Assembly: GCF_964355755.1 (NCBI RefSeq)
Contig: NC_092670.1
Location: forward strand, 50,001-114,000
Direction: 5' to 3'
DNA: 64,000 nucleotides
DNA from: Antedon mediterranea
Taxonomy: Eukaryota > Animalia > Echinodermata
A program made the translations under genes and the position numbers. Positions 8,105 through 39,466 of the stretch are shown piece by piece. Numbering within the stretch: the first letter of the stretch is position 1; each line of letters opens with the position of its first letter. The notes under the pieces are model-generated. The model was given only the letters and a program-made list of their open reading frames with translations. It did no database searches and was not told where the DNA came from.

Positions 8105-9830
8105 GAGCTATATTTCCTATACCATCCTGGCTAGTTGAGAATTCTCAACTATTTTATGTTTTTTTCTACCTTTCTGGAAAATGATATAATCCAAATTGTA
8201 TTAATACTACCAGTAGTAAACATTTAGAAACACTTGCATATCTTCACTAATTTTAGTTGTTTGTAGTTTAAGACAATCTTAGTGATATTTAAATGAAAAC
8301 AATACGATAAAAACTATTGTGTCTGTATTTTACAAGACTATGACTTCCGTATAACGTGCATTGTGGGTACTTCAATTTTTATAGAAAAGCTAGGGAATCC
8401 TAATTTAGTAGGCAGCATATGGGGGCGGGGCAACCAAACTTGCTCATCAAATCAAAGCACAGTAAAGCAAAGGATAAAATTAATGTACAATCCAGTTTAC
8501 CACTGTTCTCAACTATAGTCATTTTGGTATACTTGAGCACAGTGATAATACAACAGAAATTTAGCACAGTGTTTTACTATATAACCAGATAAATAATAGG
8601 AAACATTTAATAATTTGATAAATGACATTTAAATAGCAATTTAGGTAAATGTCTTTTGAAATGAAATTAAATAAATTATAACCAATTTGGTTAGAGTAAA
8701 ACACAATGATAAAGAATAGGAAACATTTAATAATATGATAAATTACATTTACATAGCAATTTAGCACTGTGTTTTACTATAACCAATTTGGTTAGAGTAA
8801 AACACAATGATAAAGAATAAGAAACATTTAATAATATGATAAATGACATTTACATAGCAATTTATCACTGTGTTTTACTATAACCAATTTGGTTAGAGTA
8901 AAGCACAATGATAAAGAATAGGAAACATTTAATAATATGATAAATGACATTCACATAGAAATTTATCACTGTGTTTTACTATAACCAATTTGGTTAGAGT
9001 AAAGCACAATGATAATAGGAAACATTTAATAATATGATAAATTACATTTACATAGCAATTTATCACTGTGTTTTACTATAACCAATTTGGTTAGAGTAAA
9101 ACACAATGATAAAGAATAGGAAACATTTAATATGATAAATGACATTTACATAGTAATTTATCACTGTGTTTTGATAGTGTTTTTGTAGTTTTTGATAGCA
9201 CACATTGGTTAAATAATTTCTTTCTCAGTGACATTGGTATACTTTTGTCAGTCAAGTTATTAAAATCACTGATGTGGCTTGAAACTATTTTTTCTTTTGG
9301 TTTGCGGATGGAGTAATCGATATTGAACATATATACCAAGTTTGAAATATTTTTAAATTCCAGAAGTATTTTTTCTCGATGTTTTTGTATGTGACTATTT
9401 CCCTGTGCTCCCATTGGTGCCAAATTGGGTCCACAGTGTATAGTATTAACATACGAAAAGATATTAAAATTTAGTGACTTATTTCTATTTTATATCACTG
9501 TGCTCCCCTGGCTCCAAATCGGGTCCACTTGAGCACAGTGTATTACCATACGAAAAGATATTAAAATTCAGTGACTTAATTCTATTTTATATCACTGTGC
9601 TTCACTGGCTCCAAATTGGGCCCACTTCTTGAGCACAGTGTATTAACATACGAAAAGATATTAAAATTCAGTGACTTATTTTCTATTTTATATCACTGTG
9701 CTCCACTGGCTCCAAATTGGTTCCACTTGAGCACAGTGTATTAACATACGAAAATATATTAAAATGCAGTGACTTATTTCTATTTTATATCACTGTGCTC
9801 CACTAGTGCTAAATTTGGTCCACTGGAGCA
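8105..9830 (+). mobile_element. Truncated or variant copy of the left end of the 19014-29987 foldback element, with diverged internal tandem repeats
   Basis: 8105-~8548 is nearly identical to 19014-~19450 (GAGCTATATTTCCTATACCATCCTGGCTAGTTGAGAATTCTCAACTA...). It is followed by ~100-bp arrays at 8560-9170 and 9415-9830. No right TIR was found. Confidence 0.8.
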
Positions 9831-10047
9831 GCTACCGTAGTACTATTTCTGTTTCGGAAGTAAATAAAGGCATAAATGGCGCTCCGTAGAAGTAGAGAAT
9901 GCTCGATCGTCGAAATGACGCTCTGAATATACCTCCCATCCCACCACCACACACACACAGCATGCAGCACAAACTAGCACACGTCGTCACACGACACGCA
10001 CGGGACGCGACGCGACGCCTAGGCCTCTAAGATACTCTGCTGGTAAA

Positions 10048-13000: not shown

Positions 13001-16000
13001 TATATACAGTACATATTATAATATTATACCACTTTTTAATCAACTAATCAAAACTGGATTTATGTGCATCAATATTAAAGTAGAGGGCAATTCCCCCTTT
13101 TCCCCACAGGACGTGCTGACCGTTCGTGGGCAACCCACATTGTTTTTTTTGTACAACATAATTTTTTTATAATGTTGTCTGGCATTATCATCGTACATTT
13201 TAAATGGTTACCAAACTGACAAGCACTCGCTTCTTTTGGTATACTATTAAATATTGTAATGTACAATTTGTGAATAAATGTGTACATGAATTTATTTAAG
13301 CTGCTGATCATATCATTGAACAGGTGAAGTTTAAATTGTTTAGTTTGTTTGTTGCATTGTAGTTTTACAGATTCTTAAGGAAACCCAACAACAGCACGGG
13401 TTGCGTCATGGTGATTACCAACGATACAGGTATGTAGTGTGTACACTTTTTGTATGTTCACATTTTACTGTAGATGTAAGTGTGTATTTACTGTACTAAC
13501 CAACTTTTCATACTTTTTTTTATAGAGGGTACTGTTCAAGACGATTGCGTAGAATGCGAAAATCTCTTAAATTTCTTCAAGGAAAGAGAAATAAGTTCAT
13601 CAAACGTGAAATTACTGAAGAAATAGTTACAGATGTTCGGTAATTTCTTTTTTTTTTCAATATTTGACTCCCAGTAATGAGATTTAAAATAAATCAACAT
13701 AATAATTTTCAATGTTTATGCAGCTGCTACTGTAGAAGCTACGATTTTTGTCCTAAAACAGTAACCAAATGCTACAGAAGACCTAATAACTTTTCTCTAA
13801 ACACATAATATTGATTGTATAAAACAACAGTTAAAACATATATATTTTTGTATGTGTGCCTTAGGTTTCTCTATTTACCACTTATTCATTCGGAACGAGC
13901 ATGGGGACATGCAATGCAACTGAAACAGGAAGCCAACACTGAACCAAGGAAACGATTTCATCTGACTGCTAGGCTATGTAAAGCTGTTAAGTATGCTGAG
14001 GAGCTAGAACTACTGTCACGTAGTGCAAAATGTGATGCCAGATCAAAGCTAGAAGCTCAAGTAAGTAAACAAATTAAACTATTGTTTATAGTGTTATTCT
14101 AAAGTCTACATATCCAAACCTGTATATTAACAACCATAGCAAATGCGTCCCACTATGCAGTACCATTTGTAAATTTATTCTGAATAACACGTAGGTTCTT
14201 GTTTTTTACTGTATGTTTTATTATTTTAAATGCTTGTTTGTAGGCATACCATGCCTGGATGCGAGGGACATTACTTTTTGAAAGAGAAAAATGGCAGGAA
14301 TCAATAGAGGCTTTTACTACAGCTAAGTAAGTTTATTTATATCCTGATCACTTACAGTTACACATCTTCCAGTTTATCTCAAATTTATTGTTAGTATTGT
14401 TTTCAATAGTTGTGAAAGGAAGGTCACCAGTTATGATTAGCCAATTGAGTCATCAAGCCCTAAAATAACAATTCTATCAAGATTGTTACTTTTGTGCATA
14501 CTGCAGTATGTTATAGATAAATTCTAAAAATAAAAGTTTTTACTTAATATTCAGTGTTCTCCCCAGGCCTTTTTAGCATCACTTTACCGTATCGTGATGC
14601 TTGAGCTCAATCCTGAGGAGAACACTGAATATTCATAATTTATTTCTGCAAATTTTTAGGACTATATATGAGAAACTAGCAGAAGCATTAAATGAAGAAC
14701 AACGGGCAATTTATTTGCAACGAGTGGAAGAAATAGCACCAAACATCCGATACTGTGCATACAACATTGGAGATGAGACTGCTATTAATGACCTTATGCA
14801 AATGAGGGTCAAATCTGGAGGTGAAATGTCTTCTAATCTTGATGTAAGTACAGGTCAGGTAGATAGAAATAATCAAAATCAAATGACATTACTTTGAAGG
14901 CAGCAAGATAGTTCACTCACAATGTGAAAAATCTTGTACCAGTGTCAAATATTAAGACCAATTTTATGCTTCATTGAAATGATTTCTTTTGTAGATCCTA
15001 CTTGCTCAAACAAGAGAAAAGCAGGCTGCAACTTTAAGTGAGGTTACTTGGCGAGGCAGGACTGTTCCTGTAAAATCTGAGCAGATTCGAGGATTTTTCT
15101 TAAGCGTACAAGAAACTGACAAAGAAGTTACTGCCGCCCCTGATGTAGAGAGCAAGATCTCTGTGTATGAGAGTCTACTCATGGGATGTAAAGATGCTCT
15201 TCAAATACTTAGGGATGAACTAAAAGCAGATGGAGTAAGTCAATATTATCAATATAGGATGTAAAGTTGGTCTTCAAATACTTAGGGATGAACTAAAAGT
15301 AGATGGAATAAGTCAATATTATCAATATAGGATGTAAAGATGGTCTTCAAATACTTAGGGATGAACTAAAAGTAGATAGAGTAAGTCAATATTATCAATA
15401 TAGGATGTAAAGTTGGTCTTCAAATACTTGGGGATGAACTCAAAGTAGATGGAATAAGTCAATATTATCAATATAGGATGTAAAGTTGGTCTTCAAATAC
15501 TTAGGGATGAACTAAAAGCAGATGGAATAAGTCAATATTATCAATATAGGATGTAAAGATGGTCTTCAAATACTTAGGGATGAACTAAAAGTAGATGGAA
15601 TAAGTCAATATTATCAATATAGGATGTAAAGATGGTCTTCAAATACTTAGGAATGAACTAAAGGTAGATGGAATAAGTCAATATTATCAATATAGGATGT
15701 AAAGATAGTCTTCAAATACTTAGGAATGAACTAAAGGTAGATAGAGTAAATCAATATTATCAATATAGTATGTAAGGATGAACTTCAGTATGTATTTACC
15801 TTGTAACCATTTGTTTTCTATTAGAATGCTAAGCAGCGAACTCAAAGAGCAGAGAGCCAGGTATCAGGAGTACAATACCTCTACACATATGTCACATATA
15901 TACGACTCACAAAAACCATTGAGCGCAACATGCTATTAGCAGAGTCTCTTAAAGAAAACTTGGTTGGCAGTCAAACATTTACAGAGAATCGTAAAGTCAC

Positions 16001-17449
16001 TAAGCCTCAAGACTTGATAAGGATCTATGACATCATCTTGCAGGTAATGTTTATGAACTATCGGTTAGTGTCAGGCTTTCAAAAGTATAACATATTCCTC
16101 ATTCAATCAATGCAAAACATTATGAAACAGTAATTTTTTATTCAATTAATCTGCTTCTTGAATCAAGGGCAGTCAAACAGTTGCCGCTCTTATTTTATAG
16201 ATAGGTTAGTTTTCACGTTAAACCAACCAAAGTATACGTGTAGGTGTGTTGTTATGTATTCTATTATGAACTGTGTTCATTTACAGTTTATAAATTAAGA
16301 TATATAAATATTTTCTTTGTACATTCATTTGTTAGAGTCTTGGTGAGTTACCATTGTTACCAGGTCTAGAAAACGATGAAGATATTCAACGAGAAGTAGA
16401 GGCTAAGACTTTAAAGTCTAAAGCATTTAGGTAAGTGAGTTAGGATAAAACAATTGTCATCACCACCCTTGAAGAAATGAGAAATTTCACTGCCATTTCA
16501 AATTAATACTAGTATCCATTGCAATTAGTCTCATACTTAGCTTACTTAGTGGTCAAGGAGGCCTTTAAGCTGGTTTTTGATAAAAGCATGCACCTAGAAA
16601 CACCTGCTTGAGATTTTAGGCATCCTAATATGAAAAATGGTAACGTGTAATTTATTTCCAGATGTTTCTATCTTGCACGATCATACGCTTCTATAAAGAA
16701 ATGGCGCGAGACATCTGCTCTTTATGAACAAGTGCTGACTTATATAAGTGGTGCTCTAGAGTTGTTTAAGAAAATTAGAACCAAGCCAACAAAGGTGAGA
16801 CAACGTTGTATGGTTTATAATCTGGACTTATTTATCATTCTCAGTTTTCATAGTTGATTTTGAGCATAGATTTGTTTCAATACATTTATTTCAATTTAAT
16901 ATATCTCTTTTAGACTGATTTAAAGGAACTGCAAGAACTACTGAATACTGTTAATGGACTCAAGTATTCTGCACATGCTTCTTCAATTTTAGGTAATTTC
17001 ATAAAATCATATGTTCATTTGTTTTGCCTTCTAATTACACAAATAGTTAGTCAGTAGCCACACAACAAAAGGTATTAAAGAGGTTCAATAGTCATTCCAA
17101 TATCATATTTTATTGGTTCATTTTTTGTTCAATCAATCATTCATTTTTGTGTCTATTTCTAGATACTGAGGCACCAATAGCTGGTATAACAAACCTAGAA
17201 ATCTCAGACAATCGCCCATTGATAGAGCGATTAGAAAAGTACCAAGAAGTTGAAAGTGTATCCTCAAAAAAGCCAAACCTGGTCACATTTCCACCGGATT
17301 TTAAACCCACTCCGCAAAAGCCTGTCTTCTTTGACATTGCTCTTAACCATGTTGATTTCCCATCTCTGGAAGAAATGCAAGAACAAAAGAAGGCAGGCGC
17401 TAGCATTGGAGGATTTTTAAGAGGATGGTGGGGAGGTGGAAAGAAATAG
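10048..17449 (+). CDS. SRP68: Signal recognition particle subunit SRP68 (spliced, 12 coding exons)
   Basis: Exons: 10048-10111, 13363-13429, 13526-13639, 13865-14060, 14244-14326, 14660-14843, 14995-15234, 15825-16043, 16336-16430, 16662-16794, 16914-16992, 17163-17449, all GT-AG. Motifs [67 protein letters not shown]..GWWG. Confidence 0.96.
10502..11478. mobile_element. Non-autonomous Mutator-like element in SRP68 intron 1
   Basis: Long (~240 bp) TIRs GGTCAGTCTAATTACC.../...GGTAATTAGACTGACC with internal AAACAACCG repeats. 9-bp TSD AATAAATCA (10493-10501, 11479-11487). Confidence 0.88.
11510..12972. mobile_element. Non-autonomous Mutator-like element in SRP68 intron 1
   Basis: TIRs CGCCGTG..GTGGTTAGGATTCCGGCACCGGAACTCAACTG / CAGTTGAGTTCCGGTGCCGGAATCCTAACCACGGCG. 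9-bp TSD TATAATATT (11501-11509, 12973-12981). Confidence 0.88.
14552..14627. mobile_element. Tiny TIR element or MITE remnant in an SRP68 intron
   Basis: CAGTGTTCTCC...GGAGAACACTG inverted ends, flanked on both sides by AATATT. Confidence 0.5.
15184..15785 (+). repeat. 73-bp tandem array (~8 copies) made of the SRP68 exon-7 3' end plus its splice donor
   Basis: First unit GGATGTAAAGATGCTCTTCAAATACTTAGGGATGAACTAAAAGCAGATGGA|GTAAGTCAATATTATCAATATA overlaps the coding exon. Later units are intronic. Confidence 0.93.
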
Positions 17450-19359
17450 ATTTAAAACTGGACGAATGAGCTAGCATTGGAGGATTTAATAGGGAATGTA
17501 GAACCATTTTAACACGTTTTAACATTCAAGTATCCTCCAATCATCAGTTTATTATTTTTTTTGCATGCATTTCTCTGCCCTGTTGATGTGTAACGTCGAC
17601 GAGTTTAAATTTTGTGAAATTTTTTTTTCATGTCAACAAAAGATTACTTTTCATCATGAATTTTTAAAATGTTAAGTTGACCAAATTAATGAAAACTTGT
17701 TTGATGTAAGAAATAGGCCATGCCCCCTAGGAAATAGACCACACCTCCTTCTTGACAAACTTCTAGTTTTCTGAGGCTTATTAATTACTCTGCAAATCAA
17801 TTCACAGTTTTTGTAGGGAAGTCATGTAATCATTGAGTCGCGGCAAACTCGAAAGGTTTGGTAGAGTTAGCAGTATATCAAATTATTACATTTTACTGTT
17901 GGATTTCCTGTTTGTGCATTGATAATGTATTGTTATATACATCAAAGAAATTATACAAACAAATGATGAAGAAAAATTAAAAGAAGGCAAGACAAAGATG
18001 ACCTTTCTCTCTTGTATGTTTAGCGCCCTCAATTTAAAAAAAACAGTGTTTTATAAAAGGAAATTAGGACAAAATATAGAACATTAATTGTAAAGATGTT
18101 GATGCCTAGCCTGTTGTATTAGTCCAATCAAAGATTGTATAGTATGCTGCCTTTGGTCCAACTATGAAGTTGGACTAATCCGCCGCTGCCAGGCTAGGGG
18201 TGGAGTTGTAGAGACAAATGCACATCTCGATAGTTTAAAGCTCAGGTGCAGGCATGAATTTTAAATACAATATCTGGTTAATTGTACATAAATCAAATAT
18301 TAGTAACAGAAATCAAGACAAAAAAACATGAATTTCCCTTAATATGGTCAAATACAAAATTCTGCCATAAAAACCAGGAAGACTTTTTTTCAGTAGTTAG
18401 GTGGTTTAACCTAATGTAATAGCATGTCTGGTGACTCCCTAGAAGGTGAAAAAAGATGGTGGATATACGGTGGATAATTTTTGCTATAGCATGAAAATAA
18501 AAATCTGAAGTTGATTAAAAATACCAGAAATGTAAAATTCAAGTTAGATTACCTATATTTAGTCATCTGATAACATTTTTTACCATGCCGTTTATTTTTC
18601 ATAGCTTTTCAAAATGCCTCTCTATTTACAAAATTTGTGTACAAAAGAATAGAGATTTTACTGTGTAATTTGAACTATCCCCCCACTGATAAGTGCTTAT
18701 TTTCAACAAGTTCGTGTAACATAAATAAAATCACAAAAATTATGAAACATAGGGGAAACTATAGATCGATAATTATTGGAATGTATGATCAATACAAATT
18801 TTTTGCCCGCACCTGGCCTTTAAATTTTAACATAGGTGATTCATTATTGTAATTGTTTTATGATGTGTACACATATTAAAATCAGTAATTAATATGCTTT
18901 TTTTGTGTGGCCGCTGTTTGTATTTATAATTTGCTACTGTTTGATGTAATGTCATGGGTCGCATGGCATGCATTATGCCTCGCTGATTCGCACTTTGCCA
19001 ACACGCCATCCGGGAGCTATATTTCCTATACCATCCTGGCTAGTTGAGAATTCTCAACTATTTTATGTTTTTTTCTACCTTTCTGGAAAATGATATAATC
19101 CAAATTGTATTAATACTACCAGTAGTAAACATTTAGAAACACTTGCATACCTTCACTCATTTTAGTTGCTTGTAGTTTAAGACAATCTTAGTGATATTTA
19201 AATGAAAACAATACGATAAAAACTATTGTGTCTGTATTTTACAAGACTATGACTTCCGTATAACGTGCATTGTGGGTACTTCAATTTTTATAGAAAAGCT
19301 AGGGAATCCTAATTTAGTAGGCAGCATATGGGGGCGGGGCAACCAAACTTGCTTATCAA

Positions 19360-22300
19360 AGCACAGTAAAGCAAAGGATAAAATTAATGTACGATCCAGT
19401 TTAGCACTGTTCTCAACTATAGTCATTTTGGTATACTTGAGCACAGTGATAAGAATAGGATAAACTTAACAATATACAACAAATAACATTAATGTACGAT
19501 CCAGTTTACCACTGTTCTCGACTATAGTCATTTTGGTATACTTGAGCACAGTGATAAAGAATATGATAAACTTAACAATATACAACAAATAACATTCATG
19601 TACGATCCAGTTTACCACTGTTCTCAACTATAGTCATTTTAGTATACTTGAGCACAGTGATAAAGAATAGGATAAACTTAACAATATACAACAAATAGCA
19701 TTAATGTACGTACGATCCAGTTTAACACTGTTCTCAACTATAGACATGTTAGTATACTTGAGCACAGTGATAAAGAATAGGATAAACTTAACAATATACA
19801 ACAAAAAACATTAATGTACGATCCAGTTTAACACTGTTCTCAACTATAGTCATTTTGGTATACTTGAGAACAGTGATAAAGAATAGGATAAACTTAACAA
19901 TATACAACAAATAACATTAATGTATGATCCCGTTTAACACTGTTCTCGACTATAGTCATTTTGGTATACTTGAGCACAGTGATAAAGAATAGGATAAACT
20001 TAACAATATACAACAAATAACATTAATGTATGCTCCCGTTTAACACTGTTCTCGACTATAGTCATTTTGGTATACTTGAGCACAGTGATAAAGAATAGGA
20101 TAAACTTAATAATATACAACAAATAACATTAATGTACGATCCCGTTTAACACTGTTCTCAACTATAGTCATTTTGGTATACTTGAGCACAGTGATAAAGA
20201 ATAGGATGAACTTAACAATATACAACAAAAAACATTAATGTATGATCCCGTTTAACACTGCTCTCGACTATAGTCATTTTGGTATACTTGAGAACAGTGA
20301 TAAAGAATAGGATAAACTTAACAATATACAACAAATAACATTAATATATGATCCCGTTTAACACTGTTCTCGACTATAGTCATTTTGGTATACTTGAGCA
20401 CAGTGATAAAGAATAGGATAAACTTAATAATATACAACAAATAACATTAATGTACGATCCAGTTTAACACTGTTCTCGACTAAAGTCATTTTGGTATACT
20501 TGAGCACAGTGATAAAAAATAGGATAAACTTAACAATATAAAACAAATAGCATTAATGTATGATCCCGTTTAACACTGTTCTCAACTATAGTCATTTTGG
20601 TATACTTGAGCACAGTGATAAAGAATAGGATAAACTTAATAATATACAACAAATAACATTAATGTACGATCCAGTTTAACACTGTTCTCGACTATAGTCA
20701 TTTTGGTATACTTGAGCACAGTGATAAAGAATAGGATAAACTTAACAATATACAACAAATAACATTCATGTACGATCCAGTTTACCACTGTTCTCAACTA
20801 TAGTCATTTTAGTATACTTGAGCACAGTGATAAAGAATAGGATAAACTTAACAATATACAACAAATAGCATTAATGTACGATCCAGTTTAACACTGTTCT
20901 CAACTATAGACATGTTAGTATACTTGAGCACAGTGATAAAGAATAGGATAAACTTAACAATATACAACAAAAAACATTAATGTACGATCCAGTTTAACAC
21001 TGTTCTCAACTATAGACATGTTAGTATACTTGAGCACAGTGATAAAGAATAGGATAAACTTAACAATATACAACAAAAAACATTAATGTACGATCCAGTT
21101 TAACACTGTTCTCAACTATAGTCATTTTGGTATACTTGAGAACAGTGATAAAGAATAGGATAAACTTAACAATATACAACAAATAACATTAATGTATGAT
21201 CCCGTTTAACACTGTTCTCGACTATAGTCATTTTGGTATACTTGAGCACAGTGATAAAGAATAGGATAAACTTAACAATATACAACAAATAACATTAATG
21301 TATGCTCCCGTTTAACACTGTTCTCGACTATAGTCATTTTGGTATACTTGAGCACAGTGATAAAGAATAGGATAAACTTAATAATATACAACAAATAACA
21401 TTAATGTACGATCCCGTTTAACACTGTTCTCAACTATAGTCATTTTGGTATACTTGAGCACAGTGATAAAGAATAGGATAAACTTAACAATATACAACAA
21501 ATAGAATTAATGTACGATCCCGTTTAACACTGTTCTCAACTATAGTCATTTTGGTATACTTGAGCACAGTGATAAAGAATAGGATAAACTTAACAATATA
21601 CAACAAATAACATTAATGTATGATCCCGTTTAACACTGCTCTCGACTATAGTCATTTTGGTATACTTGAGCACAGTGATAAAGAATAGGATAAACTTAAC
21701 AATATACAACAAATAACATTAATATATGATCCCGTTTAACACTGTTCTCGACTATAGTCATTTTGGTATACTTGAGCACAGTGATAAAGAATAGGATAAA
21801 CTTAATATTATACAACAAATAACATTAATGTACGATCCAGTTTAACACTGTTCTCGACTAAAGTCATTTTGGTATACTTGAGCACAGTGATAAAGAATAG
21901 GATAAACTTAACAATATAAAACAAATAGCATTAATGTACGATCCCGTTTAACACTGTTCTCAACTATAGTCATTTTGGTATACTTGAGCACAGTGATAAA
22001 GAATAGGATAAACTTAATAATATACAACAAATAACATTAATGTACGATCCAGTTTAACACTGTTCTCGACTATAGTCATTTTGGTATACTTGAGCACAGT
22101 GATAAAGAATAGGATAAACTTAACAATATACAACAAATAACATTCATGTACGATCCCGTTTAACACTGTTCTCGACTATAGTCATTTTGGTATACTTGAG
22201 CACAGTGATAAAGAATAGGATAAACTTAACAATATACAACAAATAGCATTAATGTACGATCCAGTTTAACACTGTTCTCAACTATAGACATGTTAGTATA

Positions 22301-23270
22301 CTTGAGCACAGTGATAAAGAATAGGATAAACTTAACAATATACAACAAAAAACATTAATGTACGATCCAGTTTAACACTGTTCTCAACTATAGTCATTTT
22401 GGTATACTTGAGAACAGTGATAAAGAATAGGATAAACTTAACAATATACAACAAATAACGTTAATGTATGATCCCGTTTAACACTGTTCTCGACTATAGT
22501 CATTTTGGTATACTTGAGCACAGTGATAAAGAATAGGATAAACTTAACAATATACAACAAATAACATTAATGTATGCTCCCGTTTAACACTGTTCTCGAC
22601 TATAGTCATTTTGGTATACTTCAGCACAGTGATAAAGAATAGGATAAACTTAATAATATACAACAAATAACATTAATGTACGATCCCGTTTAACACTGTT
22701 CTCAACTATAGTCATTTTGGTATACTTGAGCACAGTGATAAAGAATAGGATAAACTTAACAATATACAACAAATAGCATTAATGTACGATCCCGTTTAAC
22801 ACTGTTCTCAACTATAGTCATTTTGGTATACTTGAGCACAGTGATAAAGAATAGGATAAACTTAACAATATACAACAAATAACATTAATGTATGATCCCG
22901 TTTAACACTGCTCTCGACTATAGTCATTTTGGTATACTTGAGCACAGTGATAAAGAATAGGATAAACTTAACAATATACAACAAATAACATTAATATATG
23001 ATCCCGTTTAACACTGTTCTCGACTATAGTCATTTTGGTATACTTGAGCACAGTGATAAAGAATAGGATAAACTTAATAATATACAACAAAGAACATTAA
23101 TGTATGATCCAGTTTAACCCTGTTCTAAACTATAGTCATTTTGGTAAAGAATAGGATATACTTCGAATAAACAGCAAATAACATTAATGTACGATGCCGT
23201 TTAATACTGTTTTAAACTATAGTCATTTGAGTATAATTAATCACAGATAAAGAATAAGATCAACTTTAAT
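19360..23270 (+). repeat. 106-bp tandem array, left arm (~37 copies)
   Basis: Unit GAGCACAGTGATAAAGAATAGGATAAACTTAACAATATACAACAAATAACATTAATGTACGATCCAGTTTAACACTGTTCTCAACTATAGTCATTTTGGTATACTT. Confidence 0.97.
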
Positions 23271-23377
23271 ACTATTTATTAAATAAAAAAAACTAATTCT
23301 ATATTAACACATATTATTTACATATACTTTCACTGCTGATTTCTAGTATAAACAGGCCATAGGCCTATACATGGCTG

Positions 23378-23465
23378 CAGTCGCGTGCTCAAATTTGAGT
23401 TGGTGTTTACCGACCGACCGACCGACATAGTGAGCTGTAGAGTCGCGTTTGCACGCTACTAAAAA
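23378..23465 (-). mobile_element. Terminal remnant of a DINE-1/HINE (Helentron-derived)-like element
   Basis: (ACCG)n microsatellite followed by CATAGTGAGCTGTAGAGTCGCGTTTGCACGCTACTAAAAA (imperfect hairpin plus A/T run), the layout typical of such termini. Confidence 0.5.
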
Positions 23466-24223
23466 GTTCACAAAAACCGTAGGACGGTCACAGGGGAGTT
23501 TGTTCGAAACTCCAACCCCTCCCCTGGCTATGCGTTTAGATTTTTCATGCCTCCTTTACAAACCAAGATTATTAGAATACTATTAGGAGGATCAAACACA
23601 ATTCTTGTTGCCAGATTTCATTGACATTACAGGTATGAAGTCTATCAATATACAGTACCGCTTAATACAATACTTGTTGAGGCCATATCCATCTATACAT
23701 TTTAGTGTTATTCCACTTTAAAAAAGTCGATTTATACCAATACTCATCAACATACGATATAACGATAGAATTTATTGCAACTTGTCCATATCGTATTCAT
23801 CTACAAATAAAGTGTCTATTACCGTACTTTTAAAAATCTATTTATATCAATACCTATCAACGTATGTACGTATGCATATTATATATACAAAAATATATAC
23901 ATCAACATAAATGTCATATAATCTACAGTCATTAGTGTTATTTCACTTTTAATATTAGTAAATCCAAAGGCAAAATACTGAAATAATAACAATGCTGTGG
24001 TCTCAATGGAGATACAAAAAAAGAAGCGAAAAGCTAAATCAAAACGATAAAGTAAAACAGCCAGAAAAGTTAGCAGAGTTTTCGGGCAACACTAGCCCTT
24101 CATCAGTGCAAGTGAGTGTACTTGTACAAGATATTGTTATTTAACGTTTAGTCGATTTATATCAATACACTCATCAACATATGTACGTGCAATTCACGTC
24201 ATATTCATATATCATCAATAGTG

Positions 24224-26118
24224 CGTATCCGGATATTCACCCCCTGGACATTTACCCCCCGGAAAACTACCCCCCGAACAACCACCACCTGGACCACTAC
24301 CCCCTTAGGACAACTACCCCTTTAGGACAACTACCCCCCGGACAAATACCCCCCGGACAACTACCCCCTTAGGACAACTACCCCCTTAGGACAACTACCC
24401 CCTGGACAACTACCCCCCGGACAATTACCCCCTAGGAACAATTACCCCCCGGACATTTACCCCCCGGACATTTACCCCCCGGACAATTACCCCCCCCCCC
24501 CCCGGTAATTACCCCGCGGACAACTACCTCTGACACAATACTCCAATACTCCCCGTAGGACAACTACCTCCTGGACCTGGACAATACTCCGAGGGAAAAT
24601 AATCTTTTAGGACAACTACCTCCGTAGGACAACTAACCCCTGGACAACTACCACCCAGAAAACTATCCCTTTAGAACAACTACACCCCGGACGGACAACT
24701 ACCACCCAGACCATTCAACAACCTGACGCTGCAACAGCGTATATAGGAATTAATAACTATATTTTAATTCGTTACTTTGACGAATTACTATTCATTATTG
24801 TAAACAAAAGTAAAAGATTGAACATAAATATAGCCTGGTATAAACTGAGGATTGTCACACATGATCATAGGATAGTCGAACGTATTATATAGTACTCCCT
24901 GTATTTACTGTAAAGACTGGGTTCGCTAATAATAATAATAATTTTTGCGTCAGGACAATGCTTCGATAACCACTGGTCTTAAAAGAATTAATTTTTGTCT
25001 CAAATTTGTCATTTGTATTTTTGTACACTTGAAGAATAATATCACTTTTGATATTTGACCTCAATGTTCACTCACCGAATAAACGGCGATCTTTAAATAA
25101 ATTCCCTCAAATAAACGGTGACCATGTCACTCCCATGACACATCATATGGAATAATCGGCGTCTATTTCCATTAGATTATACCCCCTCCCATTGAATAAA
25201 CAACTTTCTTCCAATAAATGTCCACCTAAAAACCACCTACAATAAACAGCCCAGGCCGTTTTTTCAATAAATACTGTACTTTAAATCTAGCACATCTAGG
25301 GTCTAGCGTGCTGTTAAACAGAATAATCGGTTAAAAACGGGTGTTTCGAAACTAGAGACCCGAGACCAGAGACCAGAGACCCGAGACCCAATACAAAAAG
25401 GGAGACCTAAATATACGAAAAGGGAGACCTAAATATACGAAAAGGGAGACCCACGTACGAAAAGGGAGACCCCACTATACGAAAAGGGAGACCCCACTAT
25501 ACGAAAAGGGAGACCCTAATATACGAAAAGGGAGACCTAAATATACGAAAAGGGAGACCAAATATACGAAAAGGGAGACCCAAATATACGAAATGGGAGA
25601 CCCAAATATACGAAAAGGGAGACCCACTATAAGAAAAGGGAGACCTCACTATACGAAAAGAGAGACCACACTATACGAAAAGGGAGACCCTAATATACGA
25701 AAAGGGAGACCCAAATATAGGTCTCCCTTTTCGTATTGGGTCTCGTGTCAGGTCTCTGGTCTCGGGTCTCTAGTTTCGAAACACCCGTTAAAAACAGATG
25801 ATTTCATTTTTACAGAAACCGGTCCTATATATTTGTCTACTTTTAGATTGGGGGTTGGGGGGGGGGCTAGTTGACCGGGGGGTAGTTGACCGGGGGGTAG
25901 TTGACCGGGGGGTAGTTGTCCTAAGGGGGTAGTTGTCCTAAGGGGGTGGTTGTCCGGGGGGTAGTTGTCCGGGGGGTTGTTATCCTAAGGGGGTAGTTGT
26001 CCTAAAGGGGTAGTTGTCCGGGGGGTAGTTGTCCGGGGGGTAGTTGTCCTAAGGGGGTAGTTGTCCGGGTGGTAAACATCCGGGGGGTAACTGTCTAGGG
26101 GGTAGGTGTCCTAGAACC
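24224..26118. mobile_element. Non-autonomous TIR element with C-rich and G-rich subterminal repeats
   Basis: Left arm (GGACAACTACCCCCC)n, right arm (GGGGGGTAGTTGTCC)n. CAATAGTG is directly repeated at 24216-24223 and 26119-26126. Confidence 0.85.
25339..25786. mobile_element. Mutator-like MITE nested in the 24224-26118 element
   Basis: TIR GGGTGTTTCGAAACTAGAGACCCGAGACCAGAGACC and its reverse complement. Internal TACGAAAAGGGAGACC repeats. 9-bp TSD GTTAAAAAC (25330-25338, 25787-25795). Confidence 0.9.
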
Positions 26119-26606
26119 CAATAGTGTACACTAATAGTGTTATTTCACTTTTAAAAGTCGATTTATATCAATATACTCATCAATAAATGTACTTGTCCAC
26201 GTCATATTCATCTACAATCAATAGTGTTATTTCACTTTTAAAAGTCGATTTATATCAATATACTCATCAACATTATGTACCGTACGTGTCCACGTCATAT
26301 TCATCTACAAATATTAGTGTTATTTCACTTTTAAAAGTCGATTTATATCAATATACTCATCAACATGTAAATCGTGTCCAAGTCATATTCATCTACAAAT
26401 ATTAGTGTTAATTTGACTTTTAAAAGTCGATTTATTTCAATATACTAATCAATATATGTAAATCGTGTCCAAGTCATATTCATCTACAAATATTAGTGTT
26501 AATTTGACTTTTAAAAGTCGATTTATATCAATATACTAATCAATATATGTACGTGTCCACGTCATATTCATCTACAAATATTTTAGTGTTATTATGTTTT
26601 TCATAT

Positions 26607-29600
26607 TATCACTGTGCTCAAGTATATGAAAATGACTATAGTTGAGAACAGTGTTAAACAGAATCGTGTACATTAATGTTATTTGTTGTATATTGTGCTC
26701 AAGTATACCAAAATGACTATAGTTGAGAACAGTGGTAAACGGGATCGTACATTAATGTTTTTTGTGGTATTGTTAAGTTTATCCTATTCTTTATCACTGT
26801 GCTCAAGTATACCAAAATGACTATATTTGAGAACAGTGGTAAACTGGATCGTACATTAATGTTATTTGTTGTATATTATTAAGTTTATCCTATTCTTTAT
26901 TACTGTGCTCAAGTATACCAAAATGACTACAGTTGAGAACAGTGTTAAACTGGATCGTACATTAATGTTTTTTGTTGTATATTGTTAAGTTTATCCTATT
27001 CTTTATAACTGTTCTCAAGTATACCAAAATGACTATAGTTGAGAACAGTGTTAAACTGGATCGTACATTAATGTTTTTTGTTGTATATTGTTAAGTTTAT
27101 CCTATTCTTTATCACTGTGTTCAAGTATACCAAATTGACTATAGTTGAGAACAGTGTTAAACTGGATCGTACATTAATGCTTTTTGTTGTATATTGTTAA
27201 GTTTATCCTATTCTTTATCACTGTGCTCAAGTATACCAAAATGACTATAGTTGAGAACAGTGTTAAACTGGATCGTACATTAATGCTATTTGTTGTATAT
27301 TGTTAAGTTTATCCTATTCTTTACAGTATCACTGTGCTCAAGTATACCAAAATGACTTATAGTTGAGAACAGTGGTAAACTGGATCGTACATTAATGTTA
27401 TAATATTTGTTGTATATTATTAAGTTTATCCTATTCTTTATCACTGTGCTCAATACCAAAATGACTATAGTTGAGAACAGTGTTAAACGGGATCGTACAT
27501 TAATGTTTTTTGTTGTATATTGTTAAGTTTATCCTATTCTTTATAACTGTTCTCAAGTATACCAAAATGACTATAGTTGAGAACAGTGTTAAACTGGATC
27601 GTACATTAATGTTATTTGTTGTATATTGTTAAGTTTATCCTATTCTTTATCACTGTGCTCAAGTATACCAAAATGACTATAGTCGAGAACAGTGTTAAAC
27701 TGGATCGTACATTAATGTTATTTGTTGTATATTATTAAGTTTATCCTATTCTTTATCACTGTGCTCCAGTATACCAAAATGACTATAGTCGAGAACAGTG
27801 TTAAACTGGATCGTACATTAATGTTTTTTGTTGTATATTGTTAAGTTTATCCTATTCTTTATAACGATTCTCAAGTATACCAAAATGACTATAGTTGAGA
27901 ACAGTGTTAAACTGGATCGTACATTAATGTTTTTTGTTGTATATTGTTAAGTTTATCCTATTCTTTATCACTGTGCTCAAGTATACCAAAATGACTATAG
28001 TTGAGAACAGTGTTAAACTGGATCGTACATTACTGTTTTTTGTTGTATATTGTTAAGTTTATCCTATTCTTTATCACTGTGCTCAAGTATACCAAAATGA
28101 CTATAGTTGAGAACAGTGCTAAACTGGATCGTACATTAATGCTATTTGTTGTATATTGTTAAGTTTATCCTATTCTTTATCACTGTGCTCAAGTATACCA
28201 AAATGACTATAGTTGAGAACAGTGTTAAACTGGATCGTACATTACTGTTTTTTGTTGTATATTGTTAAGTTTATCCTATTCTTTATCACTGTGCTCAAGT
28301 ATACCAAAATGACTATAGTCGAGAACAGTGTTAAACTGGATCGTACATTAATGTTATTTGTTGTATATTATTAAGTTTATCCTATTCTTTATCACTGTGC
28401 TCAAGTATACCAAAATGACTATAGTTGAGAACAGTGTTAAACGGGATCATACATTAATGTTCTTTGTTGTATATTATTAAGTTTATCCTATTCTTTATCA
28501 CTGTGCTCAAGTATACCAAAATGACTATAGTCGAGAACAGTGTTAAACTGGATCGTACATTAATGTTATTTGTTGTATATTATTAAGTTTGTCCTATTCT
28601 TTATCACTGTGCTCAAGTATACCAAAATGACTATAGTTGAGAACAGTGTTAAACGGGATCGTACATTAATACTATTTGTTTTATTGTTAAGTTTATCCTA
28701 TTCTTTATCACTGTGCTCAAGTATACCAAAATGACTATAGTCGAGAACAGTGTTAAACGGGATCGTACATTAATGTTATTTGTTGTATATTGTTAAGTTT
28801 ATCCTATTCTTTATCACTGTGCTCAAGTATACCAAAATGACTATAGTTGAGAACAGTGTTAAACGGGATCATACATTAATGTTATTTGTTGTATATTATT
28901 AAGTTTATCCTATTCTTTATCACTGTGCTCAAGTATACCAAAATGACTATAGTCGAGAACAGTGTTAAACGGGATCATACATTAATGTTATTTGTTGTAT
29001 ATTGTTAAGTTTATCATATTCTTTATCAATGTGCTCAAGTATACCAAAATGACTAAGTCAAGAACAGTGTTAAACGGGATCATACATTAATGTTATTTGT
29101 TGTATATTGTTTGTTAAGTTTATCCTATTCTTTATCACTGTGCTCAAGTATACCAAAATGACTATAGTTGAGAACAGTGTTAAACGGGATCGTACATTAA
29201 TGCTATTTGTTGTATATTGTTAAGTTTATCCTATTCTTTATCACTGTGCTCAAGTATACCAAAATGACTATAGTTGAGAACAGTGTTAAACGGGATCATA
29301 CATTAATGTTATTTGTTGTATATTATTAAGTTTATCCTATTCTTGATCACTGTGCTCAAGTATACCAAAATGACTATAGTCGAGAACAGTGTTAAACGGG
29401 ATCATACATTAATGTTATTTGTTGTATATTGTTAAGTTTATCCTATTCTTTATCACTGTGCTCAAGTACACCAAAATGGCTATAGTTGAGAACAGTGTTA
29501 AACGGGATCGTACATTAATGTTATTTGTTGTATATTGTTAAGTTTATCCTATTCTTTATCAATGTGCTCAAGTATACCAAAATGACTATAGTTGAGAACA

Positions 29601-29640
29601 GTGTTAAACTACATCGTACATTAATGTTATTTGTTGTATA
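26607..29640 (-). repeat. 106-bp tandem array, right arm, inverted relative to 19360-23270 (~28 copies)
   Basis: Unit is the reverse complement of the left-arm unit (TATCACTGTGCTCAAGTATACCAAAATGACTATAGTTGAGAACAGTG...). Confidence 0.97.
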
Positions 29641-30122
29641 GGCCTATTGTTAAGTGTATTCTTTATTCTTATTAATTGTACTAAATTATTAAAAGAAACA
29701 GTAGTAAGCATAACATTTCCCCACTCCTACATTAGCATGGTAAGACATTGTAATGGTCGCAGGTGGCTCAACTTTATTACTGCAATGGGATGGACATGGT
29801 CCTTACCATCCAATAGGATTCCAGTAAATTTCCTTTACTACCAATCATAATTCAGTAATTAAATGACTCCTTAAGTTAACAAGGAAATCAGCCTATTTCA
29901 TTATACCGGTAGGCTTCGTAGTACAGGCGCACTGCGGTAATAGTTGAGAATTCTCAACTAGCCAATTTGGTATATTTTATATACCTGCATCCGGGGACTT
30001 CACATCGCCGGCCATTTTCTTTCCTAGGTAGTACCAAAGCAATCTTTGGTAGTACGTAGGTAGCTGCTGTTGTTCTCCTCTCTCACCACCGCACCGGCAA
30101 ATTTGTTTCTTTTCGAAACAAG

Positions 30123-33100
30123 ATGATGTTGTCACGGTCCTGTTTAGTGTATAGGCCTAGGCCTATATCAAGAAACATACCGGTAAATTCTAGGTAGCCT
30201 CCTAGCCAGGCTAATAGGCCTATCTCCTAGCTAGCCTAGGCCTAGGCCTATACTAAATAGCCTTAGTTAGAGGGTAGGCCTAGCGGATGCTAGTCAAGTC
30301 GCCCCATCGCAAAGTCGCCCCATACAAAGTCGCCCCTTACACAGTCGCCCCATCGCAAAGTCGCCCCAAAACAAAGTCGCCCCGACACAGTCGCCCCATC
30401 GCAAAGTCGCCCCATCGCAAAGTCGCCCCATCGCAAAGTCGCCCCATCACAAAGTCGCCCAAAACGTTAAAAAATAGTTTACAAGTGCGTAAAATGTCGC
30501 AATGATACACAAAATAACACGGAACGTGTAGGCATAAAAGGGGAAGCCCCGCCATGTAGTCTCAGGTCACACGATCGGCACGCACCCCCATCATCAGAGT
30601 GGAAACCCCGACTAATCACTCAGCGGTCGCACTAACGTGCTATAGCTTACCAGCAGAGGGAAACCCCGTAATTACTCCGCCGTTGTCGCACTACAACGCA
30701 CCATTCTGAAGATGGGGAAACCCCGCCGGAGTTTTACAATGATATCAGTCGCGTTCGAAATCGGTCGCGTTTAATTTTGGTCGCGATAAAATGATGTTAT
30801 ACGATCTAGATTATTTTTACTTTGGTCGATGAATATTTATTGTTATTATTAGGCCTATATTAATAATTGATTTTTGTTTTTATTTTACAGGTCAGTATGA
30901 TGGGAAAGATGTGTGCCTTAAAAAAATGACAATTTGTAAACATAGTTTAAGATTATAGTATTATCCAGCATAATGTCATTTGACAGTACATAATTATTTA
31001 AATGTGAAATATTTTATAGGAAACGTAGACTGCGTCTGTGTCTTTTATTTTATATGCAACAAATTACGTAAAACAATTTATTTATAAACATTCAGTTTAC
31101 TATTATTATACATAGTATTACATACAATGGACATTGATTGTAAGCCTGGAAAGGCAATCCCATCATTATATCAATTATAAAATTGCATCATATCACCACT
31201 ATATGTCGTAAATGACGTGCGTGTGTGTATTCGTCGTACGTATTATTCCGTGCCTCTTCACTGTCTTGTTTAATTTAAAATTAAATATACACCCGATATG
31301 AGGATATTTATTAGGCATGTTAATTAGAATGTTCTAAAACCAAAAGGGTTGAAAAGAATTTCTTCAGTAAAATGATCATTGTGCTGTTAATAAAAGGCGA
31401 CTCGCTATCTGAAACATTCTCTGAAACCAATCGGAGCTGCGCCTTCTGGTATCTGTTTCCTCACAGCTGCTACGTCTTTCTGCTGACCGTCGGGGATTCC
31501 CCTTTTTAAAAAACACGCACACGATACTGTACGATGGTTTTTCCATGGTCAAAATGTAGCGTTTTAAATTTTACTAAAATACCTGCATGTAAAACAATCA
31601 TATCGGCGATGAAATCCTTTTTTTCCCCTTCATTTTGAAAAGTCATTATAAAAGTAAGACACATAACTTGTCAATAAATGCAAAATGATCAATAAGTAGC
31701 CTATAACACTCATTGTCTTACAACACTGTTTTACAACTCATTGTCTTACAAATCTATACGAAGGCCTACACGTTTATACATTTATTATATTATCCTAAAA
31801 AATGAGCTGGTATCCAGGCGTAGGTTGAAGAAAGATTCGTAATTGTGGCTCTGGTAACTAATTTAACATTTTCGAAACTATAAATCAGGGATAATCTTTT
31901 TAGAACTTTCAAACAAGGGACTATTTTTTTAATGATTTTTAAAAAGCACATCACTCCATTAAAACCTGTAAAATAAAAATTTTATGTATATAATAGGATA
32001 AACATTGTAATGTAGGCCTATACGACATTTAGCGCGACCAAAGTAACAAACGCAATCGATATCAAACGCAACCGATATGAAACAGCGTACTACTACGGCG
32101 GCGCTTCATTATCATACCGAAATAAAACCGTGGTCGACTTTGCGATTGGGCGACTTTGCGATGGGGCGACTTTGTAATTGGGCGACTTTGCGATGGGGCG
32201 ACTGTGCCTGGGCGACTTTGTTTTGGGGCGACTTTGCGATGGGGCGACTTTGTATTGGGCGACTTTGTATGGGGCGACTTTGCGATGGGGCGACTTGACT
32301 GGATCCCGGCCTAGCTAGTACTAGCCTAGGCCTAGTACTAGGCTAGTAGTAGGCCCCACTTGGCCCAAGAAGGGCCTACTACTAGGGCCTAGCCTAGGCT
32401 ATATTTGAATTAATTAACTAGCCTATGCCCCTAGCCTAATTAGTTACTCTAGTAGGCTAGCCCTGTCCTGAGGCCAGCCTCCCGCCTCTACCAGGCCCGG
32501 GCTAAGAGGGCCTAGGCCTACTCCTAGCCTAGCTAGGCCTAGGCCTATTCTATACGAAGTGGTTAGGATTCCGGCAGAATGAACGCAATTTATTGTTCAA
32601 TTGAAAATCGATCATTCATGCACATTTTTATAACATCATGTACACAGTTCAACACCAATTTTTCCGACTGGTTGGATGGCTTTAGTGGTGTGGTACTGCG
32701 GCTAGAGGTTTTGCTGGTCATTGTAGGCCTAGGTTCAATTCTCGATCAATTTTTTAATTTTTTTTTTTAATTCAAAAAATTGTATTTTATTGACCATCGT
32801 CTTTATTCATCATCATCTTTACCCACCATTGCCTAGAGGGATGTTTTTTTTTAGTTTTAGGTTTTAGTTCTCAGTGGAAAGTTTCTGTCGGAATCTGTTA
32901 CAACAATGGGCAGTTGAGTTCCGGTGCCGGAATCCTAACCACGGCGTATTCTATATCATATATCATGCATACTAGGCCCTAGCCTACAGTATATACTTAT
33001 CTAGGCTAGGGCCTAGACTACTACTAGGCCTATCCTAGAGTAGTAGTATGCCTAGCTAGGCTAAGGCTACTATTACTACAAAATACAGCTAGCTAGACCT

Positions 33101-36100
33101 AGACTAGGGCTAGATATAATTAATAGCTGGCCTAGGGCTAGGCTAGGCTAACTCTTTTTTTTTACACAACACTGGCTGCATGATGCAGTCGATTATGCTG
33201 CAAAACAAGGTATCAACAATGCACTGTCCAAAAAGTCGGCCTAGGCTAGTATCCTAGGCCTAGCGTAGAGGGCCTAATAATAGGCTACGGTACCATACCA
33301 AGCACATGCACTGACCATATCGATGATCGTGATACGATAGCTTTATTCTTTTTTTTGTATAACAGAAACGTTTTCAATCGGCTCAAGCTGCAACAGCTCA
33401 AACAGACCGGATCCCTCTACCAGCCCAAGATGCCCAAGTATCAAAACTAACCAGTGGACTTACCATTGCCTCACTTGAAAACTATTCACCAATTAGCAGA
33501 GTTGCAGTCATAGTCAATGCTGGCTCCAGATATGAAAGCACTAAAAATCTAGGTTCTTCTCACTGTTTAAGAGCATTTGCTAATCTGGTAGGTATACCAT
33601 AAAAAAAGCTAGGTATACATTACAAATTCATTCTGCTTATTCTGCAATTTCTTTTTACGTATAATTTGCTTAGTTTTATTTTATTTAGTGTTTCTTCTTC
33701 TCTCAGACATGTACAGGTGCAAGTACATTCAGTATCACAAGAGGCCTCGAGGCTATTGGAGCAACGCTTGAAGCAACAACAACTCGTGATCATCTACTAT
33801 ACTCTATCAAATGCTTACGTGACAATGTGTACGTTGGTTTTTCTCATTTCTAGTATTGTATGTCCGTAACTAATGCTTGTTCTAAGTTGAGCCAGACAAA
33901 AAGTTTTCTATGAAATTTGTGACTTTTCTTTGCATTAATTTAAGGACATTAATACTAATAGAGTAGGAGCTCCCTAAATTCTATTCAGAAACATACTAAA
34001 ATTGATATTTTCCTTCCTGCTGTTTTTTATTAATGATGTTATTGATATGTATAGAGATGTAGCTGTAAACTATTTAACAAGCATTGCTGGAGGTCAAGAG
34101 TTCAGAAGGTGGGAGGTCAACGACAGTAAATACAGAGTAGACCTTGATTTGGCCCTAGCTGAAGTAAACCCTCAAATTGGTATGAAAGAATGTATTTATT
34201 ATATTGTTATGCAGCTCAATTGACAAAACTAGCCCTTATATAGAATGTGGTTCATTATTCATATTGTTCTTTGAGCCGTTACTATTTCATTGTTGTTTAC
34301 AAATGACAATGAACTTAATCTTAATTATTTGTAGAAGAATGAAAGTCAAATTGTCAAATTAGGTATTGATTGTTATGTGTTAAAAGAACTTATTCCTTCT
34401 TCTAGTTTTGATGTATAATGTGTTATAGTAAATTTCACAAATTATTACTTTTGCTAATTATTTGATCATAAAAGCAGAATATATACTGGATTACAAATTT
34501 ACATTGGCATAGTTGACAGCACTAAAGCAGACCTTTGTGAAAGAACTCTGCCTGCCCTAGCCAGAAACTTAATATTTATTTTTTAACTTTTTCTTAGATG
34601 TGATGGAGAAACTTCATGGCACAGCTTTTAGAGGCAATCTTGGAAATTCTTTGTTCTGCCCAAAATACATGCTAAATGAATTCACACCAGATCTACTCAA
34701 AGAATTTGTGGACACTCAATTTACTGCTGAGAATATGGCTCTTGTAGGACTTGGTAAAGTTACTCCTTTCATCTTATTTATTTATTTCAAATCAGACCAA
34801 CAACAAGTCATTACCACTAACAGGCTTGGCTGGTAAGAACCACAAAGATAAATATAATTGTTCCTACAATACAAGTAAATGTAAAGAATGGAAGTAAGTA
34901 ACCAATATCAACATTGAGAATTGTAAGAAAAAGTGAACAACAAAAGAAAATGCAACATAAAATGTTGGACATACATATTAATTGAATTAATACATTTTAC
35001 ATACAACATTATGTTAATGTGTAAGAACATCTTTGGCATGGAGAATTGATTGACATGGACAATTCAAAAAATTGTAATGCTATACTCCTATAATTGTCAA
35101 GACATTCATCTTAACATTTGATAATGCTTACATTATATGTACATTGATAAGTAATTGATTTATTTTTTAGGGGTTGATCATGATACACTTAAGGCTATGG
35201 GTGAAAAGTTGTCTGTCAACCAAGGATGTAAAGTTAATACTGTATCAAAATACTATGGTGGTGAGTTGATTTCATTATTTTTATTATTATAACTTTTTAC
35301 AAATGTTTCAAGGGGAAACAACATAGACAAATATAAGTGACATAAACAATTTTGTTGACAGGTACTGAGAGCAGAGTACAGAATAACAACAGCTTAGTGC
35401 ATGCTGCTTTGGCTGTACAAGGAGCTGGAATCCACAGTGAGGATGTACTTACACTCTCAGTCATGCAGTATTTATTAGGACCTCAACCTTCTATTAAATG
35501 GGGATCACACATGGCCACATCCAAGCTAAATCAAGCTGCGGCTAAAGTTACACAATCTCCATTTCATGTAAGTGTAAGGTGACATTCTAAATGTTTTCAA
35601 AGGTGGTAGTAATGACATTTCCAAGCACAAGTGTTTTCAAAGGTAATAGCAAAGAGACGTTTAATATGAATATTTAGTAACAATTTTGATGATGGTTACT
35701 CAATGGTAGATATTTAGTGTGTGGATTACCATACAATTCATGCTGTATAGTATTATACATTAAAATGTGTATTTGTTTTTTCAGGCCAGCTGTGTGAACA
35801 TGAGCTATGCTGACACTGGTTTATTTGGATTCTATGTACTTGGGCATGCCAGTGAAATGGAATCTGTAAGCATGTTTCATTTCAATTGTTATTGTATATT
35901 ATACAAATGACTAATGTTTTATATGTTGATTGAATTAGGAGAATATCTTGAAAGATTTTGACAAGGTAGAGGACAAACTTTTGATGAATGAATGGTTAGT
36001 CAAAACATTCATTACAACACACCTACAGATTCAAAAATAAACTTTTATTAATCAGCTCCCATCGATGTCAAGACTAGACTAACGCCCGTATTCTTAAACC

Positions 36101-39306: not shown

Positions 39307-39466
39307 ACCACAATAACACACCATATTTGGATGAACTATTATAGACCACAATAACACACCATATTTGGATGAACTATTATAGACCACAATAACACACCAT
39401 ATTTGGATGAACTATTATAGACCGCAATAACACACCATATTTGGATGAACTATTATAGACCACAAT
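39280..39466 (+). repeat. 38-bp tandem (~5 copies) of the UQCRC2 last codons, stop and start of 3' UTR
   Basis: ACACCATATTTGGATGAACTATTATAGACCACAATAAC repeated. The first copy encodes TPYLDELL*. Confidence 0.93.

Follow-up and report, generated by a model that had tools for sequence, protein, structure and literature searches.

A gene-less foldback-type element with inverted satellite arms beside UQCRC2 in the crinoid Antedon mediterranea

Directly upstream of the UQCRC2 gene of the crinoid Antedon mediterranea lies a stretch of about 11 kb that holds no genes and in which two arrays of a 106-bp satellite unit face each other in opposite orientation (NC_092670.1, positions 50,001 to 114,000, the 64-kb window analysed here; positions below are counted from its first letter). 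This locus raises the question of whether such a structure entered the chromosome as a single mobile element, where its satellite came from, and what the insertion means for the neighbouring gene. Very probably, the structure at 19014-29987 is a foldback-type DNA transposon without genes of its own, whose arrays likely arose from duplicated transposase-binding sites and which was likely moved by a transposase encoded elsewhere. Besides the window, a search for public sequencing runs listed 12 from 6 studies, none of them listed as holding RNA, and those that bear on the element are X1, X5, X6 (organism B, a related species) and X10 (organism C). The parts of the element, with its target-site duplication (TSD), terminal inverted repeats (TIRs) and nested insertions, are the following:

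19007..19013, plus strand: left TSD, CATCCGG, 7 bp, with its boundary set by a second left end at 8105
19014..19062, plus strand: left TIR, starting GAG, with a 20-bp palindrome at 19041-19060; this terminus recurs at 8105 and as loose ends in X1 and X5
19063..19377, plus strand: left subterminal block, 315 bp, unrelated to the right block
19378..23260, plus strand: left arm, 35.5 units of 106 bp and a ragged inner edge, with a 12-unit higher-order repeat present about three times
23261..26600, unstranded: non-coding spacer, with degenerate 91-bp repeats on either side of a nested insertion
24224..26118, unstranded: nested, unrelated TIR element of 1.9 kb with 15/16-bp inverted mini-arrays and the 8-bp TSD CAATAGTG
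25339..25786, unstranded: second-level nested miniature inverted-repeat transposable element (MITE) of 448 bp inside the 24224-26118 element, with 22-bp repeats and the 9-bp TSD GTTAAAAAC
26601..29689, minus strand: right arm, 27.7 units of 106 bp in reverse orientation with ragged edges, lacking the 12-unit period
29690..29938, plus strand: right subterminal block, 249 bp, of high depth in the public runs
29939..29987, minus strand: right TIR, CAG read from the end, with the palindrome at 29941-29960; three X5 contigs diverge behind 29987
29988..29994, plus strand: right TSD, CATCCGG, 7 bp; the exact match of X1 record 7 starts at 29988

The layout of each end is a short TIR, a private block and a satellite arm, unlike the continuous long TIRs of Tetris and Galileo, and inverted repetition does not run through the whole element. 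The true TIRs measure only 48-49 bp, with 39 of the first 48 bases matching between the ends and no relation past base 49. The two subterminal blocks align with a score of 22, compared to 23 +/- 3 for shuffled sequences, 127 of 200 of which score as high. The initial annotation, which described an 11-kb foldback with inverted satellite arms, stands, with the refinement that the subterminal blocks are unrelated. Its imperfect TIRs with a perfect palindrome are borne out, since both ends hold the 20-bp palindrome, which occurs three times in the 64 kb (19041, 29941 and 8132).

The extent of the element is given by sequences other than the duplicated bases themselves. Homology of the left end with the copy at 8105 begins exactly at 19014, and 19014-19452 is 97.5% identical to 8105-8548. 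In addition, loose ends behind 29974 that equal the reverse complement of 19014-19026 are found in three contigs of X1 and in one of X5, which stops there, and a variant is found in X6. On the right, three X5 contigs part from the window behind 29987. Because the second left end and the public contigs fix both termini, the element spans 19014-29987 and its TSD is exactly 7 bp. A TSD of 7 or 8 bp had been proposed earlier; CATCCGG indeed adjoins both ends, but the additional G of an 8-bp repeat is the element's own first base, as the homology with the 8105 copy starts there. A 9-bp TSD with one mismatch was likewise rejected, since other copies end at 29987. The probability of finding a given 7-mer at one fixed place by chance is 1.4e-5 at the composition of the window and 8e-5 at 55% GC. 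In all copies seen, the first base is unlike at the two ends, being G on the left and C on the right, and this is therefore a trait of the family.

A chromosome lacking the element is probably represented in X1. Record 7 of this run (374 bp, at a single-copy depth of 240.8) matches 29988-30139 with its first 165 letters, beginning at the first TSD base and differing from the window by three insertions or deletions at 30038-30070, and carries 209 further letters at the left that do not fit the element's end. On a chromosome without the insertion, these letters would correspond to about 18798-19006. Possibly, the record reflects a different insertion at the same site. X1 yields no contig for the window's own right junction, and the bins at 30002-30067 carry record 7 alone; as contigs collapse haplotypes, the missing junction contig is weak evidence. 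The insertion thus probably segregates or differs between chromosomes, and the element appears young from its near-identical ends and the probable empty allele.

With regard to the origin of the satellite, the 106-bp unit contains a copy of the TIR motif. In 24 of 29 columns it matches the outer part of the right TIR, a score attained by 0 of 1000 shuffles, and it matches that of the left TIR in 20 of 26 (0 of 1000; 13 of 1000 for the whole 48 bp). Furthermore, the 20-bp palindrome consists of two head-to-head copies of a 10-mer that is also present in many units. Comparable relations are reported for Tetris, the repeats of which share 37 bp with the outer domain (PMC4079207), and for Galileo, whose internal repeats hold extra THAP-binding sites (PMC3688188). 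It is therefore likely, judging from sequence likeness, that the end of the element gave rise to the satellite, as is the case for Tetris and Galileo. From the likeness of unit and TIR, together with these two parallels, we infer that the unit is a duplicated segment to which the transposase would bind. The right subterminal block is joined to the array edge in X1 record 1, X5 record 10 and X6 record 18, and the satellite therefore travels with the right end. The earlier description as a non-autonomous transposon with inverted satellite arms beside the 5' end of UQCRC2 is supported by the shared termini, the exact TSD, the joining of array and right end in three runs and two organisms, and the lack of a coding region.

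The two arms are similar in sequence and differ in their internal periodicity. Tandem Repeats Finder (TRF) delimits arrays of 35.5 units at 19378-23146 and of 27.7 units at 26694-29640, and counting by anchors yields 36 and 29 units with ragged edges included, in agreement with the some 37 forward and 28 reverse units first annotated. The best inverted alignment of the arms extends over 3140 bp at 93.2% identity. Among the 35 left and 27 right full-length units, divergence amounts to 4.7% within the left arm, 4.6% within the right and 4.8% between them, and 11 of 22 recurrent variants are common to both. The left arm displays a period of 12 units (lag-12 distance 2.8 vs about 5; 0 of 5000 permutations), which was sought in the right arm and not found there. 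Mirror homogenisation between the arms was not found either (best mirror offset 4.25 vs mean 5.02, p = 0.22 in 2000 permutations). Equal divergence, shared variants, a 12-unit period in the left arm only and the lack of a mirror register show that the arms come from one pool and then grew separately. A stem of 3 kb would be possible on paper and is without trace in the sequence.

The spacer between the arms measures about 3.3 kb between the ragged array edges, as annotated before, and 3547 bp between the TRF limits. Its 91-bp repeat is interrupted by the 24224-26118 element and shows no relation to the 106-bp unit, as 408 and 194 of 500 shuffled sequences score equally high. No Pfam transposase match was obtained for the scanned 17 of the 39 spacer frames of at least 40 aa, the other 22 of which mostly lie in mini-arrays or overlap scanned frames; a Sas10_Utp3 match was dismissed as weak and below the cutoff (E 0.018). 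Inspection of the whole window for a transposase-like frame of at least 150 aa likewise revealed none, and the element is non-autonomous. At 23410-23465, the spacer contains a (CCGA)n run, after which come an imperfect hairpin of short length and an A-run, a stretch that we take to resemble a Helentron/DINE-type 3' end.

Evidence for further members of the family comes from the window and from the public runs. Only one further copy is readable over a longer stretch:

8105..9830, plus strand: second, one-ended family member, with the left end at 8105-8548 followed by related arrays of 101-bp and 97-bp units, which stop about 215 bp short of the SRP68 ATG (10048)

After one unit, this copy switches into the 101-bp and 97-bp arrays, both of which are distantly homologous to the unit (for each, 0 of 500 shuffles score as high), with the 97-bp array scoring 40 in forward and 35 in reverse orientation against the 106-bp unit. 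The switch suggests that related subfamilies may exchange arms at a common motif, and the copy looks chimeric or truncated. In X1, the summed contig depth is 13,287-13,561 over 29738-29803, 64,357-69,247 over the TIR and 148-241 in the flank; summed contig depth is not a copy number, but it does point to near-identical right ends in the tens. Organism B (X6) likewise has the right end, and its insertion site is without cover at 29980-30133. One low-depth contig of about 94% identity in organism C (X10) was not interpreted. X5 is only guessed to be RNA, and no conclusion on transcription was drawn from its depth over the element. When metagenome contigs were scanned for exact matches to a 24-mer of the TIR and a 25-mer of the unit, there were 0 matches, which is uninformative on the host genome.

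The class to which such an element belongs can be considered from its architecture and from its termini. The features of foldback elements are all present: long inverted tandem-repeat arms around a middle segment (the alignment of 3140 bp at 93.2%), a TSD around the whole structure (7 bp, at independently fixed termini), and dispersed copies that vary in structure (the different arrays of the 8105 copy and the high-depth ends with several flanks). FB and TU elements are Mutator-related with TSDs of 8-9 bp, in which they differ from the element described here. The likeness to Drosophila FB and sea-urchin TU elements (named in PMC4079207; not compared in sequence) lies in the modular inverted tandem-repeat arms and the variable middle. 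Of papers on TU elements, a literature search yielded the Tetris paper alone. Like Tetris and its TIR-220 satellite in Drosophila virilis, the element is a non-coding foldback with inverted arms of variable tandem repeats and array expansion inside the element, and the likeness between repeat and outer end extends over 37 bp at about 80% in Tetris, compared to 29 columns with 24 matches here (PMC4079207). However, Tetris is assigned to Mutator and has a TSD of 8-10 bp instead of 7 bp and a flanking domain of up to 866 bp within its TIR instead of a TIR of 48-49 bp with unrelated blocks, while complete Tetris copies contain few repeats compared to about 63 in the single TSD-flanked copy here (PMC4079207). 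In its mode of working the element resembles Tetris and Galileo, but it lacks two features of Tetris/Mutator-type foldbacks, the longer TSD and a flanking domain common to both ends, 127 of 200 shuffles scoring as high as the blocks.

Termini of the P superfamily follow the rule CA...TG and those of hAT elements the rule (C/T)AG at both ends. The right end fits both, reading ...TG and CAG, whereas the left end starts with GA in both window copies and in the X1 and X5 contigs and, as GAG, does not fit hAT either. In typical hAT elements the TIRs are short, the subterminal regions of the two sides are unlike and the right end reads CAG, all of which is also found here, while the left GAG and the lack of a linked hAT transposase set the element apart; to our knowledge, kilobase inverted satellite arms are not a hAT trait. 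The 7-bp TSD agrees with a subgroup of hAT families in which TSDs of this length exist (PMC4455052), and the accessible parts of two further papers (PMC12905397, PMC8721813) give no terminal rule for 7-bp hATs. The TSD falls equally within the 7-8 bp of the P superfamily, as does that of the P-type Galileo of Drosophila, which is 7 or 8 bp (PMC4168063). Galileo shares with the element a 7-bp TSD, foldback-like arms extended by tandem repeats, one-ended copies and nested insertions, and a 9-kb Galileo copy consists of TIRs without transposase (PMC4168063). In contrast, Galileo has continuous long TIR arms, an AT-rich target (GTATTAC) and a known transposase (PMC4168063, PMC3688188), while the present element has a GC-rich target, ends that differ from their first base on and no linked transposase. 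We infer a transposase of the P/Galileo type with about an even chance, while one of the 7-bp hAT type is possible at a distinctly lower probability and any other type is unlikely. No description of this family was found in a literature search short of most subscription journals and Repbase Reports; the kind of element has been described already, and the present one adds another example.

The insertion site adjoins a gene whose identity is well defined, and the relevant features are:

18954..19006, plus strand: patch rich in CpG and GC, which likely is the upstream portion of the putative UQCRC2 promoter, displaced by the insertion
29995..30122, plus strand: residual UQCRC2 proximal promoter and 5' untranslated region, with an initiator-like heptamer at 30000 and a YY1-like octamer at 30011
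30123..30182, plus strand: UQCRC2 coding exon 1, with the ATG at 30123

For exon 2 of UQCRC2, the 23 best of 48 PDB matches are complex III chains (E 7.5e-17 to 3.6e-13), identified as core protein 2 wherever the subunit is named, with core 1 behind at 1.9e-6. A spliced X5 contig joins 30182 to this exon, and the longest spliced contig extends to 30094; the contigs are unable to map the start site. X5 also carries an in-frame 6-base length variant at 30152, in the N-terminal leader. The distance of 135 bp between the right end of the element and the ATG, noted earlier, is confirmed by counting 135 bases up to 30123. The 60 bp ending at 19013 have a GC content of 0.57 and 5 CpG, either of which is reached by about 3% of 60-bp bins, and the DNA right of the insertion is likewise rich in GC and CpG. 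The insertion thus likely splits the UQCRC2 promoter. The earlier claim that the upstream sequence of the gene was displaced by 11 kb is strengthened by the CpG-rich 60 bp and by the probable empty allele. The heptamer at 30000 and the octamer at 30011, the latter with 8 occurrences in the window, are presumed to be initiator-like and YY1-like, and the TSD is taken to be ETS-like. The second left end has a similar setting: the 60-mer before 8105 has a GC content of 0.58 and 6 CpG (about 3% of bins) and lies upstream of SRP68, which spans 10048 to 17446 and of which one exon is 100% identical to an Antedon mediterranea protein and 93% to that of Anneissia japonica.

Several other features were observed in the window. 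Three TIR elements with exact TSDs of 8-9 bp (10502-11478, 11510-12972 and 30285-32307) lie in the first introns of SRP68 and UQCRC2, two of them with inverted mini-arrays, whose units measure 10 bp and 16 bp; the 11510 family recurs as a fragment at 32907-32946, and an inverted-repeat element with 55-bp arms (89%) occupies 36082-37008 in a UQCRC2 intron. Tandem arrays start at exon ends at 15184-15787, 39280-39466 and 46406-50492. Among them, the 73-bp array copies the end of an SRP68 exon, the 38-bp array seems to repeat the region around the UQCRC2 stop codon and the 135-bp array appears to begin at a splice donor. The 468-aa open frame at 42243-43646 contains a YADD motif and is presumably a reverse-transcriptase fragment of a long interspersed nuclear element (LINE). 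Exons at 40100-41800 on the minus strand are taken to be FKBP-type isomerase-like, and those from 44684 onward on the plus strand SUZ12-like.

Taken together, these observations suggest the following history. A DDE transposase with a 7-base target stagger would bind the TIRs and probably also the repeated motif of the unit. The ancestor may have carried a single unit or a few of them inside either end; as the units at each end faced their own terminus, their orientation was opposite. Each arm would then have lengthened alone through unequal exchange or slippage, yielding a 12-unit block about three times in the left arm only, while the spacer would have been enlarged by the two nested insertions. 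Finally, a recent insertion of this copy would have split the CpG-rich UQCRC2 promoter, so that its upstream part now lies 11 kb further off and some 130 bp of core promoter and leader stay next to the gene. This remaining downstream promoter probably still drives UQCRC2 transcription, and most likely the element is without host function.

Some observations weigh against a single transposon. The first bases, G on the left and C on the right, fit neither P nor hAT cleanly, and no autonomous partner was found among the frames of the window, with no genome-wide search made. The public-run evidence comes from the displayed contig pieces (25 of 137) and the displayed loose ends (19 of 58). A right end or TSD of the 8105 copy was sought in 8549-19013 and not found, its best right-end match being 26 of 48 bases and its 5' flanking 7-mer occurring once in the window. 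Copies without paired TIRs and TSDs, which the initial annotation had considered damaging to a transposon, are represented in part by this copy. One-ended copies are common in such families, for example in Galileo (PMC4168063), and the unpaired copy therefore weakens the transposon reading little. The same copy, together with the unrelated subterminal blocks, the lack of a mirror register (p = 0.22) and the presumed Helentron-type likeness at about 23410-23465, could instead point to two independent one-armed elements, for instance of the Helentron/DINE type, standing back to back with a 7-bp match by chance. This is very unlikely, as an exact 7-bp repeat adjoins two independently fixed termini (a chance of about 1e-5 to 1e-4), the 48-bp TIR is common to both ends and the probable empty contig breaks precisely at the first TSD base. 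Helentrons, moreover, are not known to make a TSD and insert in T-rich sites, with which the GC-rich 7-bp TSD does not agree. A misjoin of satellite-rich DNA, giving an inversion and a false insertion, is also very unlikely. Tandem arrays make up 49% of the window, and X1 offers only record 7 at 30002-30067 and no contig for the right junction; however, the units show ordered single-base variants and a regular 12-unit period, a misjoin would not yield a TSD at the termini of a family, and a coverage hole proves nothing where contigs collapse haplotypes.

Within the single-transposon explanation, the position beside UQCRC2 could reflect the target choice of the family or a use by the gene. That the transposase prefers the CpG-rich, open promoters of housekeeping genes, like the Drosophila P element, is a tentative and on balance improbable reading. 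Both left ends of the window follow GC- and CpG-rich 60-mers, upstream of UQCRC2 and SRP68, and 11 kb separate the two copies, which share one orientation; the P element tends to insert at 5' ends of genes and in GC-rich targets and to hop locally (PMC2577343). However, a local hop would link the two copies, only one of which is an independent observation, three displayed flanks of other copies are AT-rich (X1 behind 29991, X5 behind 29987 and X6 behind 29974), and unrelated MITEs cluster in the first introns of both genes, where open chromatin may attract all elements. Highly improbable is a co-option in which UQCRC2 would draw promoter elements from the right end: the longest spliced contig has its 5' end at 30094, about 106 bp from the element, and the TSD duplicates a presumed ETS-like site, but the insertion appears polymorphic and young.

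The element adds a clear deuterostome case of a satellite that derives from the end of a transposon and travels with it, some 63 units still lying between intact, TSD-flanked termini. The surprise is limited, as the kind of element is known and the window holds at least five other TIR elements, four of them with internal mini-arrays. In the case of a heterozygous insertion, the expression of UQCRC2 from each allele would directly measure the cost of an 11-kb satellite beside a core promoter. Should the family, rather doubtfully, be a young crinoid one that seeks CpG-rich housekeeping promoters while carrying kilobases of its own amplified putative binding site, an 11-kb satellite block would segregate at most about 100 bp from where an essential gene of the respiratory chain starts. 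Heterozygotes would then provide a natural test of the minimum of upstream DNA that such a promoter requires and of whether satellite arrays silence a neighbouring gene.

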